DNA of 42,228 nucleotides from a virus (lineage: Duplodnaviria > Heunggongvirae > Uroviricota > Caudoviricetes), in IMG/VR virus record IMGVR_UViG_648861009_000010, one strand, 5' to 3'. The notes beneath the pieces are model-generated. The model ran no database searches, was not told the DNA's origin, and worked only from the letters and a program-made list of their open reading frames with translations. The position numbers and the translations under genes were made by a program. This document shows positions 1 to 37,129 of this stretch, one piece after another. How positions within the stretch are numbered: the first letter of the stretch is position 1; each line of letters opens with the position of its first letter.

Positions 1-516
1 ATGAAATTTAAAAAATGTCTTCTGCCTGTGGCAACGTTAGCGTCATTCACTCTGGCAGGATGCCAGTCAAATGCTGATGATCATGCCGCCGATGTTTATC
101 AAACCGATCAACTGAATACCAAACAAGAAACTAAAACCGTTAATATTATTTCCATTCTTCCCGCAAAAGTTGCCGTAGACAACTCCCAAAATAAACGAAA
201 CGCACAAGCCTTCGGCGCGCTTATTGGTGCAGTCGCTGGCGGTGTTATTGGCCACAACGTCGGGTCTGGCAGCAATTCCGGAACGACGGCAGGTGCAGTT
301 GGCGGCGGAGCTGTTGGCGCGGCAGCGGGTTCTATGGTGAATGATAAAACCTTAGTGGAAGGTGTTTCTTTAACGTATAAGGAAGGCACCAAAGTGTATA
401 CCTCCACCCAGGTGGGTAAAGAGTGCCAGTTTACGACAGGTTTAGCCGTTGTTATTACCACGACGTATAACGAAACGCGTATTCAGCCAAATACGAAATG
501 TCCTGAAAAGAGCTAA
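1..516 (+). CDS. Host outer-membrane lipoprotein with glycine-zipper domain (YcfJ/SlyB-like architecture)
   Basis: 171-aa ORF; N-terminal signal peptide with lipobox LAGC; Gly/Ala-rich zipper segment GALIGAVAGGVIGHNVGSG; lies outside the prophage, before a strong terminator. Confidence 0.7.
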   Translation: MKFKKCLLPVATLASFTLAGCQSNADDHAADVYQTDQLNTKQETKTVNIISILPAKVAVDNSQNKRNAQAFGALIGAVAGGVIGHNVGSGSNSGTTAGAVGGGAVGAAAGSMVNDKTLVEGVSLTYKEGTKVYTSTQVGKECQFTTGLAVVITTTYNETRIQPNTKCPEKS

Positions 517-531
517 TGATCAGGAGGAGTC

Positions 532-1071
532 ATGAAGAAAGTTTTTCTTTGCGCCATCTTAGCCTCCTTAAGCTATCCGGCTATCGCCTCATCATTGCAG
601 GATCAACTCTCTGCTGTCGCAGAAGCGGAACAGCAAGGTAAAAATGAAGAGCAAAGGCAGCATGACGAATGGATCGCGGAGCGCAACAGGGAAATCCAGC
701 AAGAGAAGCAACGTCGCGCAAACGCCCAGGCCGCCGCTAACAAAAGAGCGGCAACGGCAGCGGCAAATAAGAAAGCTCGTCAGGATAAACTGGATGCCGA
801 AGCCACTGCGGACAAAAAACGCGATCAAAGTTATGAAGATGAGCTACGCAGCTTAGAGATTCAGAAACAAAAACTGGCGCTGGCGAAAGAAGAAGCCCGC
901 GTTAAGCGCGAAAACGAATTTATCGATCAGGAACTGAAGCACAAAGCTGCGCAAACCGATGTGGTGCAATCTGAAGCTGACGCAAACAGGAATATGACTG
1001 AGGGCGGTCGCGATCTGATGAAAAGCGTGGGCAAAGCAGAAGAGAACAAATCGGACAGCTGGTTTAACTAA
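532..1071 (+). CDS. Host secreted Lys/Glu/Gln-rich coiled-coil protein, function unknown
   Basis: 179-aa ORF; signal peptide MKKVFLCAILASLSYPAIA; RBS GGAGG 6 nt upstream of ATG; highly charged low-complexity body. Confidence 0.6.
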   Translation: MKKVFLCAILASLSYPAIASSLQDQLSAVAEAEQQGKNEEQRQHDEWIAERNREIQQEKQRRANAQAAANKRAATAAANKKARQDKLDAEATADKKRDQSYEDELRSLEIQKQKLALAKEEARVKRENEFIDQELKHKAAQTDVVQSEADANRNMTEGGRDLMKSVGKAEENKSDSWFN

Positions 1072-2942: not shown

Positions 2943-3568
2943 ACCGCCAGCACCTTACTGGCATTGATGTATCGCGCGCGCCGGTCGTCGATGCCGTTCC
3001 GGCCACCATTGATAATCAGAGTTACACGTGCAATATCGCCGGTATACTTCATGCATCCTTTGCTGGCAAAGAACCACGCCGCGCTACGAGCCGCGTATTC
3101 GTCCTGCGCCAGCAGTTCAGGACTCTCCAGCAGGTCAACCTTAAGACCGTTTCCACAGTCACGATAGTTATTCAAACCGGTAACCTGGATAAGCCCGCGC
3201 CCACGGTAGTTCCAGCCATCACCAGGGGCATTGTTCCCCATGCGTTTGCTGTACACCAGATTGGCAATCGCTCTCTGGCGCTCAAGTGGCAATGGTGGTT
3301 CGCCTGCACGTCGCCCCAATGCGTTGGCCTGTCCCTGAGTGAGACGCCCAGCCCGAACAAAGTTAGCCAGTCCGCTGACGCTGTAGTTGAAATTCTCCTG
3401 CAACCGGGTGAAGCCTCCAGACTCATGCCCGACCTGAGCAATAAACATAGCCTGATCTTCTGGTTTGCTGATACCAAACTCTTTCATCGCAGAAGTTATA
3501 TGCGAGAACCAGCGTGCGGCCAGTGCCTCGCTGATACCAGCAGCTCGCTGGAATTGTTTAATCTCCAT
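2939..3568 (-). CDS. Endolysin, glycoside hydrolase family 19 (chitinase-like) type
   Basis: 209 aa; motifs [11 protein letters not shown] and [13 protein letters not shown] recalled from GH19 phage lysins; sits between holin-like genes and Rz. Confidence 0.7.
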
Positions 3569-3866
3569 GTTTAGACCTCGATACTTTGAAAATTTGAACG
3601 ACGTTACCGCGCGTTTTAATAACCGCAGCTAGCATGACAGCGTTGATAATGACCTCAGATAAATCCACAGCCATTGGCGTACGTAACCAGATTGCATAGG
3701 CGACACGAACAGGAATACTGGCCGCAGCAACAATCAGGAAATAAGCAAGCCATCCTCCCCACCTTCGGTGTTGAGAGCCGTTACGCCGGAATGTGACAAC
3801 GCGAATTGCTATGCCAGTGCAAATAACTGCATTGGTGATAAGCAAAAAAAACTCATGCGTTACCAT
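3558..3866 (-). CDS. Small membrane protein, putative holin or antiholin
   Basis: 102 aa, 2-3 predicted TM helices, immediately upstream of the endolysin. Confidence 0.5.
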
Positions 3867-4266
3867 CGTCTTTTCTCCCCGGAATTAACTCGCGTGGATT
3901 ATCGGAACGGTGATAGAGCCATATACCAATACGCACAGCGACAATTGCTGACACGAATGCGCCTGCAGAGAAAACAATCCCTTTTTCAAAAGAGTCCTGC
4001 GTGATGGTAGGGATCAGGCTGGCTATGCCGATAAGAATTGATGCTGCTGGTTTGTAAAAGAGAAGGCCGCAAAGAAAGCTGAGCATCGACAGGAGCACCC
4101 GGCGACGGATGGGGTACTCTACTGCAGAGGTAACAAAAATTACCGCTCCAGCCAAAGCACCCAAAGCAACCTCAGGAGGAACTCCTGCTATCACCGCCGC
4201 CAGAGAACTCATGCTAAGCCACTGATTTAAAGTTTCACTGGTTAGTTGAGCTGACATGTTTTCCAC
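3853..4266 (-). CDS. Putative holin (multi-TM small membrane protein)
   Basis: 137 aa with several hydrophobic helices and a charged C-terminus; position in lysis cassette. Confidence 0.5.
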   Translation of the reverse strand: MENMSAQLTSETLNQWLSMSSLAAVIAGVPPEVALGALAGAVIFVTSAVEYPIRRRVLLSMLSFLCGLLFYKPAASILIGIASLIPTITQDSFEKGIVFSAGAFVSAIVAVRIGIWLYHRSDNPRELIPGRKDDGNA

Positions 4267-4754
4267 CGTTTATATGCATAACAACCTCCTGAACAGTAAA
4301 GCATTACGCATAATAAACCATTTATGGTTTTTGTTACTTTAACATCGTCAATTCCCTGTTTTTCATGCCGAGAATAAAGCTCACCTTTTACATGACTCTG
4401 AAGAAACAAACAGTGAAGAGCAGGTTGAATACCGCACCATTTAATGGCGCGGTAGCAGTCAAATAGAGAAATAAACACAAAAACAAAAACAACAGGAACA
4501 GCAAAATCCAACAGACTTCCCACATCCCACACGCGTGGATCAAAACCTCCCCACCACGGCATGTTGATACGTTTCCCTTTCCCAAACTTTTCTATCCAGC
4601 GATATTCTGCCTGGGTGTGTTCACGCGCAATGAAGAACGTACAACCGGCTATCGCACCGTAAGCCCAGTTTCCGGTAAAAATACCAACCAGTACCTGAGC
4701 CACAAAAGCGCAAAGCGAGTGAAGAAATGGAGTGACATCAATGCTCTTAATCAT
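4242..4754 (-). CDS. Integral membrane protein of unknown function between tailspike and lysis genes
   Basis: 170 aa; two long hydrophobic segments, Cys-rich C-terminus; start overlaps the tailspike stop. Confidence 0.55.
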   Translation of the reverse strand: MIKSIDVTPFLHSLCAFVAQVLVGIFTGNWAYGAIAGCTFFIAREHTQAEYRWIEKFGKGKRINMPWWGGFDPRVWDVGSLLDFAVPVVFVFVFISLFDCYRAIKWCGIQPALHCLFLQSHVKGELYSRHEKQGIDDVKVTKTINGLLCVMLYCSGGCYAYKRWKTCQLN

Positions 4755-7692: not shown

Positions 7693-7783
7693 ATTTACAT
7701 CGCACTCCTCTTGTGCCATAGTAATCGGGCACTGGCAAAATCCAGTGCCGGGATTGGCGTCCCGGGTTACTAAGTGGCGCATA

Positions 7784-7805
7784 CCACGCCAGACGTGGTT
7801 TTTTT
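7784..7805 (+). terminator. Rho-independent terminator-like hairpin in the 300-bp untranslated spacer
   Basis: ccacg-ccaga-cgtgg followed by 7 T; preceded by two more perfect hairpins (7728-7749, 7748-7765). Confidence 0.5.
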
Positions 7806-7946
7806 ATGCGTTAAGCACAGCTATATCCGAATTATGGTGGGCTGGGCAGGGGTCCGAAAGGACGCCGGTACCACTTAGGCCGGTACGCCAACCTTGTCCA
7901 GTTCACCACCAGTAATTGGCGTTGCGGTGGTGATTAAAATCACTAA

Positions 7947-8672
7947 GTGGAGATAACCACCATGGCTAATGCTCAAACTGCCATCTTCAAATTTGAATCT
8001 GTTAACCCTATCCGTTCCATCATTATCGATGGCCAACCATGGTTTGTAGCCCAAGACGTTTGTAGTGCGCTGCGTATCCAAAACGTCACCCAAGCACTTG
8101 AAAAACTGGATGATGATGAAAGGTCTATGTTCAACATAGGGCATGAACATCGTGCAATTTTTGACAGCCGAGTAAAAGAGATCAACATCATCTCCGAGTC
8201 AGGCCTCTACACACTGATCCTCCGCTGCCGCGACGCAGTGACACCAGGCACTATCCCCTACCGCTTTCGTAAATGGGTTACAGGTGAGGTTCTTCCTCAG
8301 ATCCGCCGCACCGGAAGTTACATTAAAAACTCGCTCCCGCAGGAAGAACGCATAAAGATAGTTGCCGACCAGGTAGCCAACGCCACAGCATCAGCAGTGA
8401 TGCAGGCAATGAAGATAGAGAACAAAACCTACAGTGCCCCACTGAAGCCCGGCTACCGCAGCCTGATTCATTCTCCGTCTGGTGTTCTCGGCCTGACGGA
8501 GAACTCACTGCTGATGAATCTGCTGAACCAGTTACAGGAAGACGGGCACGACGTATCGGGCGCGGCGGCGGAGCTGACCACCATGTTCTGCTACATTGTT
8601 GGTGTGAGCAAATGCCTGCGTGATATCCAGACCCACGCGGAGTACATCAACGACAAGGCTGGGTTCTTCTGA
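7947..8672 (+). CDS. BRO-N domain antirepressor-like protein (Ant-like)
   Basis: N-terminal BRO-N signature (IFKFESVNPIRSIIIDGQPWFVAQDVCSALRI ... SGLYTLILRCRDAVTPGTIPYRFRKWVTGEVLPQIRRTGSY); start may be ATG 7947 or 7962. Confidence 0.7.
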   Translation: MEITTMANAQTAIFKFESVNPIRSIIIDGQPWFVAQDVCSALRIQNVTQALEKLDDDERSMFNIGHEHRAIFDSRVKEINIISESGLYTLILRCRDAVTPGTIPYRFRKWVTGEVLPQIRRTGSYIKNSLPQEERIKIVADQVANATASAVMQAMKIENKTYSAPLKPGYRSLIHSPSGVLGLTENSLLMNLLNQLQEDGHDVSGAAAELTTMFCYIVGVSKCLRDIQTHAEYINDKAGFF

Positions 8673-8744
8673 CGGGCGGCGGCACAGGGATGTGCCTTTA
8701 AATAATTCTGTACAGATTGCAGACTGTGGGTGAATAGCGTACTA

Positions 8745-8759
8745 TTACCTTAAAGGTAA
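8745..8759. promoter_or_regulatory. Operator-like palindrome TTACC-TTAAA-GGTAA overlapping the moron promoter/RBS
   Basis: Perfect arms; directly abuts SD GGAGG of ORF 8772; putative -35 TTGCAG (8717) and -10 TACTAT (8740) upstream. Confidence 0.55.
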
Positions 8760-8771
8760 AGGAGGCGCGAT

Positions 8772-8939
8772 ATGACAGCGTTGAAAAATCGTACTCAGCA
8801 CAATGAACAAGCCAAGCAATGCTGGGATGTCATTGGAAAAGTTATGCTTGGCCGCGCAAGCAAAGAGCGCGACAAGGATATGGTTTACCAGACAGGAACA
8901 TCTTTCAGCGACTTCAAGGCGGCATTTCGCTCCAAATAG
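8772..8939 (+). CDS. Small protein (55 aa), unknown function, first gene of an AT-rich moron
   Basis: ATG with SD AAAGGAGG at 6-nt spacing; not in the ORF track (<60 aa); MTALKNRTQHNEQAKQCWDVIGKVMLGRASKERDKDMVYQTGTSFSDFKAAFRSK. Confidence 0.55.
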   Translation: MTALKNRTQHNEQAKQCWDVIGKVMLGRASKERDKDMVYQTGTSFSDFKAAFRSK

Positions 8940-8959
8940 AAGCACATCAGGAGTTTTCC

Positions 8960-9400
8960 TTGAAGTTTAACATTAGAATATCTAATAGTTTTCTACATGG
9001 GGAAAGCAACACCCCTTTCGCTGTAGACGGACCTTTCCTTACTGATGATGAAATAAAAATCATACAAAGTTTTTTAGAGGATGTTGCCAATGGAAGGGCG
9101 CTTGTTGGAAAAAACAAGCCCTCGTGGGTTGATGATAACCATGATAAAATTCCCGGCTCAGACAATTATGAGCAAGAGAATTATTGGCATTATCATTGTG
9201 GGCCAACATGGTATCCAAACACATTTAAGAATTATACCATTAACTTAAATTTCAACCCTGGCGGAAGGCATTCTAATGAATGCATTCATTATGCAAAAAA
9301 TGATAATGAAATTGTCATTGTTGGATTTTCAAGAGAACACATACCTTTCCTTTCATCAGATGGAAACAACAATCCGCTTTTTAATGATGAAGAAGAATAG
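8960..9400 (+). CDS. Unknown 147-aa protein with His/Cys-containing motifs, second gene of the AT-rich moron
   Basis: Open frame with no internal Met; likely TTG start at 8960 with SD AGGAG 6 nt upstream (the ATG at 8819 overlaps ORF 8772 and lacks an RBS); motifs YWHYHCGP and HSNECIHYAK; all four Arg codons are AGA/AGG; strong terminator follows. Confidence 0.55.
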   Translation: MKFNIRISNSFLHGESNTPFAVDGPFLTDDEIKIIQSFLEDVANGRALVGKNKPSWVDDNHDKIPGSDNYEQENYWHYHCGPTWYPNTFKNYTINLNFNPGGRHSNECIHYAKNDNEIVIVGFSREHIPFLSSDGNNNPLFNDEEE

Positions 9401-9423
9401 CCCGCGCTGCGGGCTTTTTTGTG
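9401..9423 (+). terminator. Rho-independent terminator ending the moron
   Basis: gcccgcg-ctg-cgggc hairpin followed by TTTTTTGTG. Confidence 0.8.
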
Positions 9424-9493
9424 GGCGAAACAAAAGTCAGTGCTACACTCATTGACGCCACATTGAGGTGGCTTATAGATGGAAATTTCACAA

Positions 9494-9654
9494 TGAAAAA
9501 AGCATTTGCTGCACTGTTCGTTTTGTTGTCTCTGGTAGCTTCAACTCAGGCCTTTGCCGGTCGTTGTCAGCACGACAGCGACACTGCTGCTGACGGCTCC
9601 CGCTGCGGTGGGCGTTCTGCGGATTCCCGCCCGGGTGGCGGTGGCATTCGTTAA
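9494..9654 (+). CDS. Possible small secreted peptide (53 aa)
   Basis: Classic signal peptide MKKAFAALFVLLSLVASTQAFA then Gly/Arg/Asp-rich tail; weak RBS; the 3' end overlaps a hairpin that looks like the terminator of the convergent lipoprotein gene. Confidence 0.35.
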
Positions 9655-9692: not shown

Positions 9693-10106
9693 TTATAAAG
9701 ATGACTGATATTTTACAACTCTGTTCATGGCATCTTTTTTCACCGAGCTGATATCAGTTCTTATTTTGGCTTCGTCATTACTGCTTATCATGCTATTAAT
9801 TTTTTGCACTGACATGCCGTTTCTTTCAGCCATTGCACATACAGCAGCATCGTATGAAGAACTCGCTGCGATGGATATCACCTTGTTACACTCAAACACA
9901 GCACCTTCAGCAATATCAGATGCCGATGAGGCTGGCTTGGTATAAGTCTTGACGTAGTGATCAATACAACTATCCTTCGCCGTCTTGGCAAGAGAAAAAT
10001 CCATTTTAACTTTGTCGCAATATGCCTTATCAACACCGTCATAAACATCATAGGATGTCGAGCAAGCGGATATCAAAAATACCGATAACAGCAATAATTC
10101 CTTCAT
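9693..10106 (-). CDS. AT-rich phage lipoprotein; candidate superinfection-exclusion / lysogenic-conversion moron
   Basis: 137 aa; lipobox LISAC after a hydrophobic signal; SD AGGA 6 nt upstream; terminal gene after the ejection-protein genes; uses AGA for Arg. Confidence 0.6.
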   Translation of the reverse strand: MKELLLLSVFLISACSTSYDVYDGVDKAYCDKVKMDFSLAKTAKDSCIDHYVKTYTKPASSASDIAEGAVFECNKVISIAASSSYDAAVCAMAERNGMSVQKINSMISSNDEAKIRTDISSVKKDAMNRVVKYQSSL

Positions 10107-27167: not shown

Positions 27168-27244
27168 GTGGCATTAGCTCAGTTGGACAGAGCAACCGCC
27201 TTCTAAGCGGTTGGTCGCAGGTTCGAATCCTGCATGCCACGCCA
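27168..27244 (+). tRNA. tRNA-Arg (anticodon UCU), phage-encoded
   Basis: Cloverleaf folded by hand: acceptor GTGGCAT/ATGCCAC, D-stem GCTC/GAGC, anticodon stem ACCGC/GCGGT with loop CTTCTAA, T-arm GCAGG-TTCGAAT-CCTGC, discriminator G, encoded CCA. Confidence 0.85.
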
Positions 27245-36544: not shown

Positions 36545-37129
36545 ATGAAAAGTATCCAGGACGTCCGCAGGCAAAATCTCAACGACTTGATCGACCGTGA
36601 ATTCAATGGTGTTCAGACGCGGATGGCTGAAAAACTTGGAACTCAGGCAAATCTGGTAAACCGCTGGGCTCTTGGCAAGAAGGTTATCGGCGACCAGGTT
36701 GCGCGAAAAATTGAAGCTGCCGCCAATAAACCCCGTAACTGGCTTGATATCGATCGCTCGCTTTCTCAGGAAGGTTTTCAGCCTGTCGGCCCTAGCGACA
36801 TTGGTCAGCTGGCGGCTCACAACCTGGAACGCTGGATGAGCGAAAGCCGCGACCTTTCAACGCAGGGAAAACTACACCGCGCATCCGGCGTCGCCCAGGT
36901 GACAATCAGCCGCCTGTTAAACAATGAGGTCAGCGTTTCCATTTCCACCCTGGAGAATGTTGCATCCGCATTCGGGCGTCACGGCTATGAATTACTGATT
37001 CACCCGCACGACCCTGCGACCATCAACTATGATCGCTCGCGCTACGCATTGTTACCCGAAACCGAGAAAGCAAAGATCGAAAGTTACATTGAATTTGTCA
37101 TCAACCAGAACGAAAAAAACAAACAATAA
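36545..37129 (+). CDS. Prophage repressor candidate: two XRE-type HTH-like segments, no LexA-like (S24) cleavage domain
   Basis: 194 aa; HTH-like TRMAEKLGTQANLVNRWALGKKVIGDQVARKIEAA and RASGVAQVTISRLLNNEVSVSISTLENVASAFG; no Ala-Gly / Ser-Lys peptidase motifs; own terminator. Confidence 0.55.
   Translation: MKSIQDVRRQNLNDLIDREFNGVQTRMAEKLGTQANLVNRWALGKKVIGDQVARKIEAAANKPRNWLDIDRSLSQEGFQPVGPSDIGQLAAHNLERWMSESRDLSTQGKLHRASGVAQVTISRLLNNEVSVSISTLENVASAFGRHGYELLIHPHDPATINYDRSRYALLPETEKAKIESYIEFVINQNEKNKQ

Follow-up and report, generated by a model that had tools for sequence, protein, structure and literature searches.

What do the two small genes downstream of the antirepressor gene encode in the prophage of IMG/VR record IMGVR_UViG_648861009_000010, and what controls them? 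The stretch of DNA analyzed here (42,228 nucleotides (nt); hereafter ‘the window’) holds a complete prophage, with the host genes yfgH/yfgI on one side and guaA on the other. Where queried, it shares 99.9% identity with Escherichia phage phiv142-3, and it belongs to the genus Uetakevirus (epsilon15/phiV10 group). A first-pass annotation, made from the sequence alone, had described these two open reading frames (ORFs), ORF1 and ORF2, as an operator-controlled moron of unknown function, and had offered exclusion, toxin–antitoxin or anti-phage activity as possible roles. We regard it as moderately probable that the cassette is an unnamed, RelE-superfamily (YafO-like) type II toxin–antitoxin-like pair, carried as an exchangeable moron under prophage-repressor control.

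Neither protein has a match in Pfam, NCBIfam or PADLOC, and in PHROGs both fall into unnamed families only, each matched end to end; PGAP calls both as hypothetical proteins (ORF2 as WP_000671198.1). Relatives of ORF2 number 34 by a word-indexed search, nearly all of them in Enterobacterales, and 121 when 1.84 billion cluster representatives (clusters at 50% identity) were searched exhaustively with a profile. The source names retrieved for protein clusters of the family are all ‘hypothetical protein’. Since all homologues start at the position of the TTG codon, a 193-residue reading from an upstream ATG at 8819 was discarded; the position and non-ATG start given to ORF2 in the first-pass annotation hold, with a length of 146 rather than 147 residues.

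Across 100 ORF2 relatives, down to ∼20% identity, H77, H79 and H127 are invariant and G50, N52, K53, S55, Y78 and Y111 nearly so. Two of these histidines fall within YWHYHCGP (residues 75–82), which, with HSNECIHYAK (residues 104–113), had been singled out earlier as a pair of His/Cys motifs. Both motifs are present, but the cysteines vary across the 100 relatives, so that a metal-binding Cys/His cluster is not borne out; a zinc site built from these motifs was rejected on the same variation in the wider family.

The AlphaFold2 (AF2) model of ORF2 (predicted local distance difference test, pLDDT, 91.6; predicted template modeling score, pTM, 0.86) has the compact alpha/beta layout of RelE/ParE proteins: an N-terminal strand and two helices, followed by an antiparallel sheet. 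As judged from this model, assignment of ORF2 to the RelE/ParE-superfamily fold, as an unnamed sequence family, appears well supported. K53 is placed in strand 2, H77 and H79 in strand 3, Y111 in strand 4 and H127 three residues past the last strand, and the three histidines, together with the lysine and tyrosine, probably form the catalytic set. Catalytic residues of RelE, YoeB, YafQ and HigB lie at comparable places (strands 2 and 3 and the C-terminal end), on a tentative mapping onto ORF2.

ORF1 has few close homologues; its counterparts came to light through inspection of the DNA preceding more distant ORF2 homologues. Seven genomic contexts were examined, and in each of them the gene immediately 5′ of the ORF2 homologue encodes an ORF1-type C-terminal domain (∼45 residues), with the shared pattern E..A..(C/Y)W(D/K)....V.L.R, then (Y/F)..G.S..D(F/I)..A. 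This upstream partner is a protein of 55 residues in the E. coli Uetakevirus slot (ORF1 itself), 56 in a Uetakevirus-like prophage of Pectobacterium (in the same slot, following a BRO-N gene), 58 in Erwinia persicina, where the two genes form an islet of their own with accA on one side and an IF-2B-family gene on the other, and 62 in a Proteus element, adjoining a DnaD-like replication gene. Elsewhere the partner is the C-terminus of a longer protein, of 102 residues in the nin region of Klebsiella lambdoid prophages, 159 in a Pasteurellaceae phage and 184 on a metagenome contig, adjoining priC. Partner and ORF2 homologue overlap or are separated by 1–31 nt over the seven contexts (20 nt, co-oriented, between ORF1 and ORF2); the ORF2 homologue starts with TTG in E. 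coli and Pectobacterium and with GTG in Erwinia. The Klebsiella lambdoid nin module (loci L003–L006, ∼3391–4486) comprises a 95-residue protein, the 102-residue protein with the ORF1-like C-terminus, and the ORF2 homologue.

The two genes are thus adjacent, co-oriented, tightly spaced and kept together in unrelated contexts. Because a small conserved partner is fixed upstream of a RelE-fold protein and moves with it as a two-gene unit among phages and chromosomes, we recognize here the signature of a type II toxin–antitoxin system, as the first-pass annotation had guessed among its suggestions; the further type II property of an autoregulating, DNA-binding antitoxin is lacking in ORF1. On the evidence of gene neighborhood, the view that ORF1 would be the obligate small partner of ORF2 is well supported.

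Of 5,426 complete E. coli genomes, 482 (∼9%) have the flanking sequences of the cassette, but no more than 60–77 of these hold this particular pair. At least five other cassettes are bounded in the same way, by this promoter and palindrome on the left and by this terminator hairpin on the right: a 59-residue protein with a 181-residue ‘YafO family toxin’ (TL-2011b gp45/gp44, and many E. coli Uetakevirus prophages); a 210-residue protein; a DUF4760 protein; a 108-residue protein with a DUF2335 protein; and proteins of 62 and 110 residues. All six cassette types end on the right with the conserved hairpin, which invariably follows straight after the stop codon and forms the right recombination boundary. 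The slot is dispensable, and epsilon15 does without a slot cassette. Description of the cassette as a moron stands up well, given its own terminator, the AT-rich ORF2 and variation among sibling prophages at a swap slot, the promoter being the weakly supported element. Since no slot cassette, including ORF1 and ORF2, matches any defense model in PADLOC-DB 2.0, the suggestion of an anti-phage function is left unsupported.

The TL-2011b slot protein provides a close comparison; it passes the Pfam model YafO_toxin (PF13957) at 26.3 bits against a cutoff of 25. Experiments have shown YafO to be an mRNA interferase that depends on translation, cleaving translated mRNA only, and its assignment to the RelE family was based on secondary structure (PMC2814082). 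In a qualitative DSSP comparison of AF2 models, the TL-2011b model being the less robust (one of five models confident), this protein and ORF2 have the same order of elements, with the invariant G-K, H-x-H, Y and H on equivalent ones: G50 and K53 of ORF2 correspond to G56 and K57 at strand 2, H77 and H79 to H74 and H76 in strand 3, Y111 to Y121 in strand 4, and H127 to H140 after strand 5. The alignment program hhalign pairs WHYH of ORF2 with RHTH, and TS..IHY with TSD.LVY, in colinear but non-significant fashion. The two cassettes share the slot, promoter/operator and terminator, and each pairs a small basic protein (pI 10.0 in TL-2011b) with a larger acidic one (pI 5.8); they differ in that their proteins have no sequence similarity by BLASTP, the TL-2011b toxin has 181 residues and an extra C-terminal helix, and its genes overlap by 26 nt rather than lying 20 nt apart.

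The likeness extends to YafN–YafO of E. coli K-12 and to PF13957 at large. In both systems the small gene precedes the toxin gene, a RelE-superfamily fold is inferred for both, and YafO and ORF2 share the succession of a strand, two helices, G-(K/R) before strand 2, a short helix, H-x-H in strand 3, an insertion, Y in strand 4, a hydrophobic strand 5 and a His 3–5 residues later. Membership of ORF2 in the YafO family was nevertheless rejected: PF13957 finds no match among 25 close ORF2 members at E up to 10, nor among the 100 relatives at E up to 0.01, hhalign is non-significant, and there is no Phd/YefM-type partner such as YafN, ORF1 being a 55-residue protein of no known domain. On model comparison, ORF2 would be YafO-like in architecture and RelE-superfamily by fold, outside the YafO family. 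The two systems also differ in control, since yafNO has a single promoter immediately upstream of yafN that is autoregulated by YafN (PMC2814082), while ORF1–ORF2 lies behind a phage repressor operator.

RelBE, HigBA, YefM–YoeB and DinJ–YafQ resemble the pair as two-gene operons; on the same tentative mapping, ORF2 also has conserved basic and His residues where their toxins carry catalytic ones, in strands 2 and 3 and towards the C-terminus. By comparison, ORF2 is acidic and exceeds these toxins by ∼55 residues, having extra sequence at the N-terminus and an insertion of 28 residues that separates strands 3 and 4, and ORF1 lacks the ribbon-helix-helix (RHH), Phd or helix-turn-helix (HTH) DNA-binding domain of RelB, YefM, DinJ and HigA. 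As an accessory cassette with its own signals beside an antirepressor unit, the locus also recalls the morons and exclusion genes adjoining immI of P22 (sieA, mnt-arc-ant) and of P1/P7 (c4-icd-ant), with isrK and C4 preceding ant here; unlike those loci, it belongs to a Uetakevirus, shows no similarity to SieA, and is wired to the main repressor operator. The first-pass annotation had placed the cassette between the ejection-protein and antirepressor genes, where P22 has sieA and immI; its location between ant and the virion internal-protein genes is correct, but the phage is not P22-like and the ‘sieA position’ holds by analogy only.

The transcription signals bear on the question of control. 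The first-pass annotation had pointed to an operator palindrome abutting a consensus Shine-Dalgarno sequence. The palindrome is real, but it belongs to a phage-wide repressor operator family rather than to the cassette: TTACC-N5-GGTAA occurs at 13 sites in the window (10 exact, 3 with one mismatch) against 0.47 expected, a number reached by none of 100 shuffles, and several of the sites abut a −10-like hexamer. Because (A)TTACC-N5-GGTAA(T) is annotated as a ‘repressor’ protein_bind in the epsilon15 RefSeq record NC_004775, in features that appear to be predictions, we take the palindrome to be of the annotated operator family of the main phage repressor and not an antitoxin operator. In the literature open to searching, no description of the epsilon15/phiV10 operator and no experiments on the motif were found. 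Two other identities were considered and rejected, namely a cassette-specific antitoxin operator (the palindrome precedes unrelated cassettes and is the annotated epsilon15 repressor site) and an MqsA-type ACCT-N3-AGGT site (what the 13 sites conserve is TTACC/GGTAA, the sixth base varying from site to site).

The motif is also found upstream of other slot cassettes, the Pectobacterium pair and the Klebsiella module, and is absent from the Erwinia, Proteus, Pasteurellaceae and metagenome copies. In the Klebsiella lambdoid module it is the sole such site in 8.5 kb, with a central ATTAA identical to that of the Pectobacterium site, which suggests that the Klebsiella cassette was transplanted together with its (now orphan) Uetakevirus operator.

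A 194-residue HTH protein is the prophage repressor. ORF43 of phiv142-3 has the same sequence as the repressor of ZX5, overexpression of which shut off lytic genes (PMC9782041); we equate ORF43 with the 194-residue repressor gene by position rather than by sequence comparison. From the shared motif we infer that this repressor would be the trans-acting ligand of the operator at 8745, and that the cassette would be under its control. Log2 values from RNA-seq in serum are 4.12 for the cassette (as ‘orf10’), 4.56 and 3.68 for the PR-proximal early genes orf41 and orf40, and 1.31 for ant (PMC7724020), a pattern that fits a separate repressor-controlled promoter derepressed in serum.

The promoter-like hexamers reported earlier are present but weak, agreeing with consensus at 7 of 12 positions, and fall below the threshold of the promoter scanner, which leaves them uncalled. 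Their support is indirect: the promoter segment is retained upstream of at least three unrelated cassettes, and the RNA-seq values put induction of the cassette far above that of ant. The TACTAT −10 overlaps the operator by its last T; site 7678, at which the scanner finds a promoter, shows the same overlap. By contrast, the strong terminator is real, with G-C at six of seven stem pairs followed by TTTTTTG, and with the operator-type palindrome it bears out the description of the cassette as self-contained. The cassette had also been called markedly AT-richer than its flanks, which is true of ORF2 (35.6% GC) and not of ORF1 (47.0%, against 47.8% for the window; ant has 51.1%). A second hairpin, directly after the ant stop codon, is kept in all slot variants; it may act as a weak terminator insulating the cassette from ant, with a folding energy no better than that of shuffled sequence (z = −0.07).

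Several observations weigh against a toxin–antitoxin-like pair. No toxin-family sequence model (RelE/ParE, HigB, YafQ, YoeB, BrnT, YafO) matches ORF2 or its 100 relatives; profile searches against PDB sequences returned no toxin with the 100-member ORF2 alignment and nothing relevant with the ORF1 alignment, a Foldseek search of BFVD, a library of viral structures, returned no significant match, and hhalign is non-significant for ORF2 against both the YafO-family cassette (probability 1.4%, E 0.037) and E. coli YafO (probability 0.4%, E 0.14). ORF1 has no recognizable antitoxin or DNA-binding domain (HTH, RHH, AbrB, Phd) in Pfam (E up to 1), NCBIfam or PDB. With a pI of 4.9 and a net charge of −11, ORF2 is strongly acidic, whereas ORF1 is basic. 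Classical RelBE has the opposite polarity, and so acidic a protein is an odd candidate for binding ribosomes or RNA; the median pI of the wider ORF2 family is 6.9, and the YafO-family cassette has the same charge polarity. ORF1, as orf9, is missing from the published list of up-regulated genes although orf10 is on it and the two would be expected to share a transcript (PMC7724020, Table S1), possibly owing to its short length, differential mRNA stability or an internal start. Finally, control of the promoter by the repressor is unusual if the module is to function in the lysogen.

If the cassette is nonetheless a toxin–antitoxin-like pair, transcription would start at the weak promoter, with the start site covered by a copy of the prophage repressor operator, and would end at the terminator abutting the ORF2 stop codon. 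Given this operator-covered start, the cassette would be low in the lysogen and rise with the immediate-early genes on relief of repression. ORF2 would be toxic, most likely inhibiting translation by cutting mRNA on the ribosome, with an RNase active site that probably draws on four elements: the Gly-Lys-Asn-Lys loop (strand 2), His77-x-His79 (strand 3), Tyr111 (strand 4) and, past the last strand, His127. ORF1 would most likely neutralize it by binding through its conserved C-terminal ∼45 residues; it is probably in excess over ORF2, because of its ATG as against a TTG start, and in the absence of a DNA-binding domain in the partner no transcriptional autoregulation would be expected. The biological role might lie in exclusion or abortive infection, in prophage retention, or in induction.

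More tentatively, one may picture a Uetakevirus ‘socket’, with the repressor operator on its left and the fixed terminator on its right, that exchanges by recombination toxin–antitoxin-like pairs whose antitoxins do not bind DNA. The lysis–lysogeny switch, and not the pair itself, would then be in control. Firing along with the immediate-early genes, the pair would serve either to brake translation upon induction or as a weapon against competitors; the socket would be transplantable to unrelated phages (the Klebsiella lambdoid nin region), and ORF2 and ORF1 would found new toxin and antitoxin families. This extended proposal is possible, but we would not lean on it.

Among the alternatives, the one that survives best, although we think it unlikely, makes the pair an effector of the lytic program: ORF2, a RelE-fold RNase switched on with the early genes, would remodel or shut off host translation or fight co-infecting phages, and ORF1 would serve as timer, chaperone or inhibitor, with no addiction or abortive-infection logic in the lysogen. 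The position of the start site under the prophage repressor operator, covariation of the transcript with those of the immediate-early genes, and the want of a DNA-binding domain in ORF1, hence of any hint that the pair conditionally adjusts its own transcription as toxin–antitoxin operons typically do, would all be at home in such a program. It is harder to reconcile with the copies in the Erwinia housekeeping-gene islet and beside priC on the metagenome contig, which have neither operator nor phage genes nearby, as is typical of selfish toxin–antitoxin modules, and with the dispensability of a slot that epsilon15 lacks and that siblings fill with unrelated cassettes.

Other alternatives turn on published work. 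A search of the literature by accession numbers returned a single paper (PMC7724020), which concerns ‘orf10’ of phiv142-3, a 52-residue, out-of-frame ORF nested in ORF2. In Pectobacterium and Klebsiella homologues the orf10 frame is broken by several stop codons and the ORF2 frame is open; on this comparison orf10 is probably a misannotation. The lambda-Red primer arms map such that Δorf10 deleted ORF2 codons 44–97, including GKNKPSW and YWHYH. The locus has thus been partly charted already, the middle of ORF2 having been deleted and phenotyped in 2020 under what appears to be the wrong gene model. The mutant grew more slowly in chicken serum, with ∼60% survival in 50% serum; kps capsule transcripts were ∼2-fold lower and blood and heart loads were reduced, and orf10 with its putative promoter reportedly restored colonization, the extent of the complementing fragment not being stated (PMC7724020). 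As the deletion removed ORF2 codons 44–97, we attribute the reported phenotypes to loss of ORF2. Removal of the ORF2 core with ORF1 kept was viable (PMC7724020), as expected for deletion of a toxin.

The same mutant might speak for ORF2 as a catalytically harmless RelE-fold regulator of host genes, with ORF1 as an accessory factor, since its deletion lowered serum growth and survival, colonization and kps transcripts, with colonization reportedly restored on complementation. We find this rather improbable: three invariant histidines with a Lys and a Tyr resemble an active site, the effects are small (∼60% survival, 2-fold RNA changes), the paper used the wrong gene model with a complementing fragment of unstated extent, and a low-level mRNA interferase could produce such pleiotropic effects indirectly. 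That orf10 is the real gene and ORF2 spurious is scarcely credible, its GenBank annotation (MN187550) and reported complementation with a putative promoter notwithstanding, in view of the stops in the orf10 frame of homologues and of the 121 relatives, invariant motifs, confidently modeled fold and PGAP call of ORF2. Least credible of all, with no supporting point found, is the view that the two ORFs are what decay has left of known structural or regulatory genes: each belongs at full length to a conserved family, the pair is kept together across genera, and ORF2 has a confident compact fold. Among the findings that would overturn it, the first-pass annotation had named descent of the ORFs from known genes as remnants and failure of the pair to be conserved together; we looked for both and found neither.

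The features discussed here, and others of the prophage, are collected in Table 1.

Table 1. The ORF1–ORF2 cassette, operator-motif sites and other features of the prophage, by position in the window.
Feature	Position	Strand	Details
Host genes yfgH/yfgI	1–1071		Flank of the prophage
STnc490	2146–2269	−	Hfq-binding small RNA; full-length match, 146 bits; near lysis-gene end of prophage
Operator sites, plus-strand island	7298, 7678, 8745		Before three units of the island
isrK match	7729–7805	+	Rfam, 67.7 bits, above gathering score
C4 antisense RNA match	7830–7913	+	Rfam, 66 bits, above gathering score
ant	7947/7986–8672	+	BRO-N antirepressor; unit directly upstream of the cassette
Exchange-slot boundary, left	8672–8760		Slot variants seen at loci L002, L011–L014
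Hairpin after ant	8690–8712		GGCACAGGGATGTGCC then TTTAAATAATT
Putative weak promoter, sigma-70-like	8717–8745	+	−35 TTGCAG 8717–8722; 17-nt spacer; −10 TACTAT 8740–8745
Operator palindrome	8745–8759		TTACCTTAAAGGTAA; 15 bp; exact match to TTACC-N5-GGTAA; abuts −10
ORF1	8772–8939	+	ATG; 55 residues; pI 9.8; phrog_8607; AGGAGG 6 nt upstream, abutting palindrome
ORF2	8960–9400	+	TTG; 146 residues; pI 4.9; phrog_5954; AGGAG 6 nt upstream
Lambda-Red primer arms (PMC7724020)	9030–9089 and 9249–9308
‘orf10’ of phiv142-3	9090–9248	+	QGF19616.1, GenBank MN187550; probable misannotation
Intrinsic terminator	9399–9421	+	AGCCCGCGCTGCGGGCT + TTTTTTG; 7-bp stem, 6 G-C pairs, 3-nt loop; abuts ORF2 stop codon
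Exchange-slot boundary, right	9399–9421
53-residue protein	9493–9654	+	57% GC; phrog_14503 ‘membrane associated protein’
137-residue predicted lipoprotein	9693–10106	−	MKELLLLSVFLISAC...; 39.4% GC; phrog_8691
Operator site	26831
tRNA gene	27168–27241	+	Between portal-side and terminase genes; tRNA-Arg in identical RefSeq prophage
Operator sites, small terminase gene	29973/29991		Before the gene
Operator sites, early-right operon	34070/34132 and 36090		Inside the operon
Operator sites, repressor gene	36427/36475 and 37187/37249		Flanking the gene
Prophage repressor	36545–37129	+	194 residues; Pfam HTH_3 at 1.2e-09

The cassette is part of a plus-strand island with the order 85-residue gene, isrK and C4 antisense RNA matches, ant, ORF1, ORF2 and a 53-residue signal-peptide protein, bordered by minus-strand genes, the tail-spike on one side and large virion-protein genes on the other. 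The isrK and C4 matches fall between operator 7678 and the antirepressor gene, and by their arrangement isrK, C4 and ant would constitute an antisense control unit for ant like immI of P1/P7. The 53-residue protein, which has an N-terminal signal peptide and a Gly/Arg-rich tail, is found 3′ of every cassette variant and is therefore part of the constant portion of the island. The predicted lipoprotein encoded beyond it differs between sibling prophages and is a candidate superinfection-exclusion gene; its match to T4 Spackle (Pfam) is non-significant (E = 0.82).

The kind of system proposed here is known; what is new is the sequence family and its unusual wiring, and what is most immediately useful is the correction of a published gene model, since the serum-resistance and colonization result obtained on ‘orf10’ in avian-pathogenic E. 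coli probably needs rereading as the effect of a toxin-like RNase. Should the toxin–antitoxin-like reading be true, an unnamed family of ∼121 clusters (at 50% identity) would join the RelE-type mRNA interferases, along with a new minimal antitoxin domain, both of them absent from Pfam, NCBIfam and PADLOC, and the slot, present in ∼9% of complete E. coli genomes, would be a convenient place to seek further accessory or defense genes.

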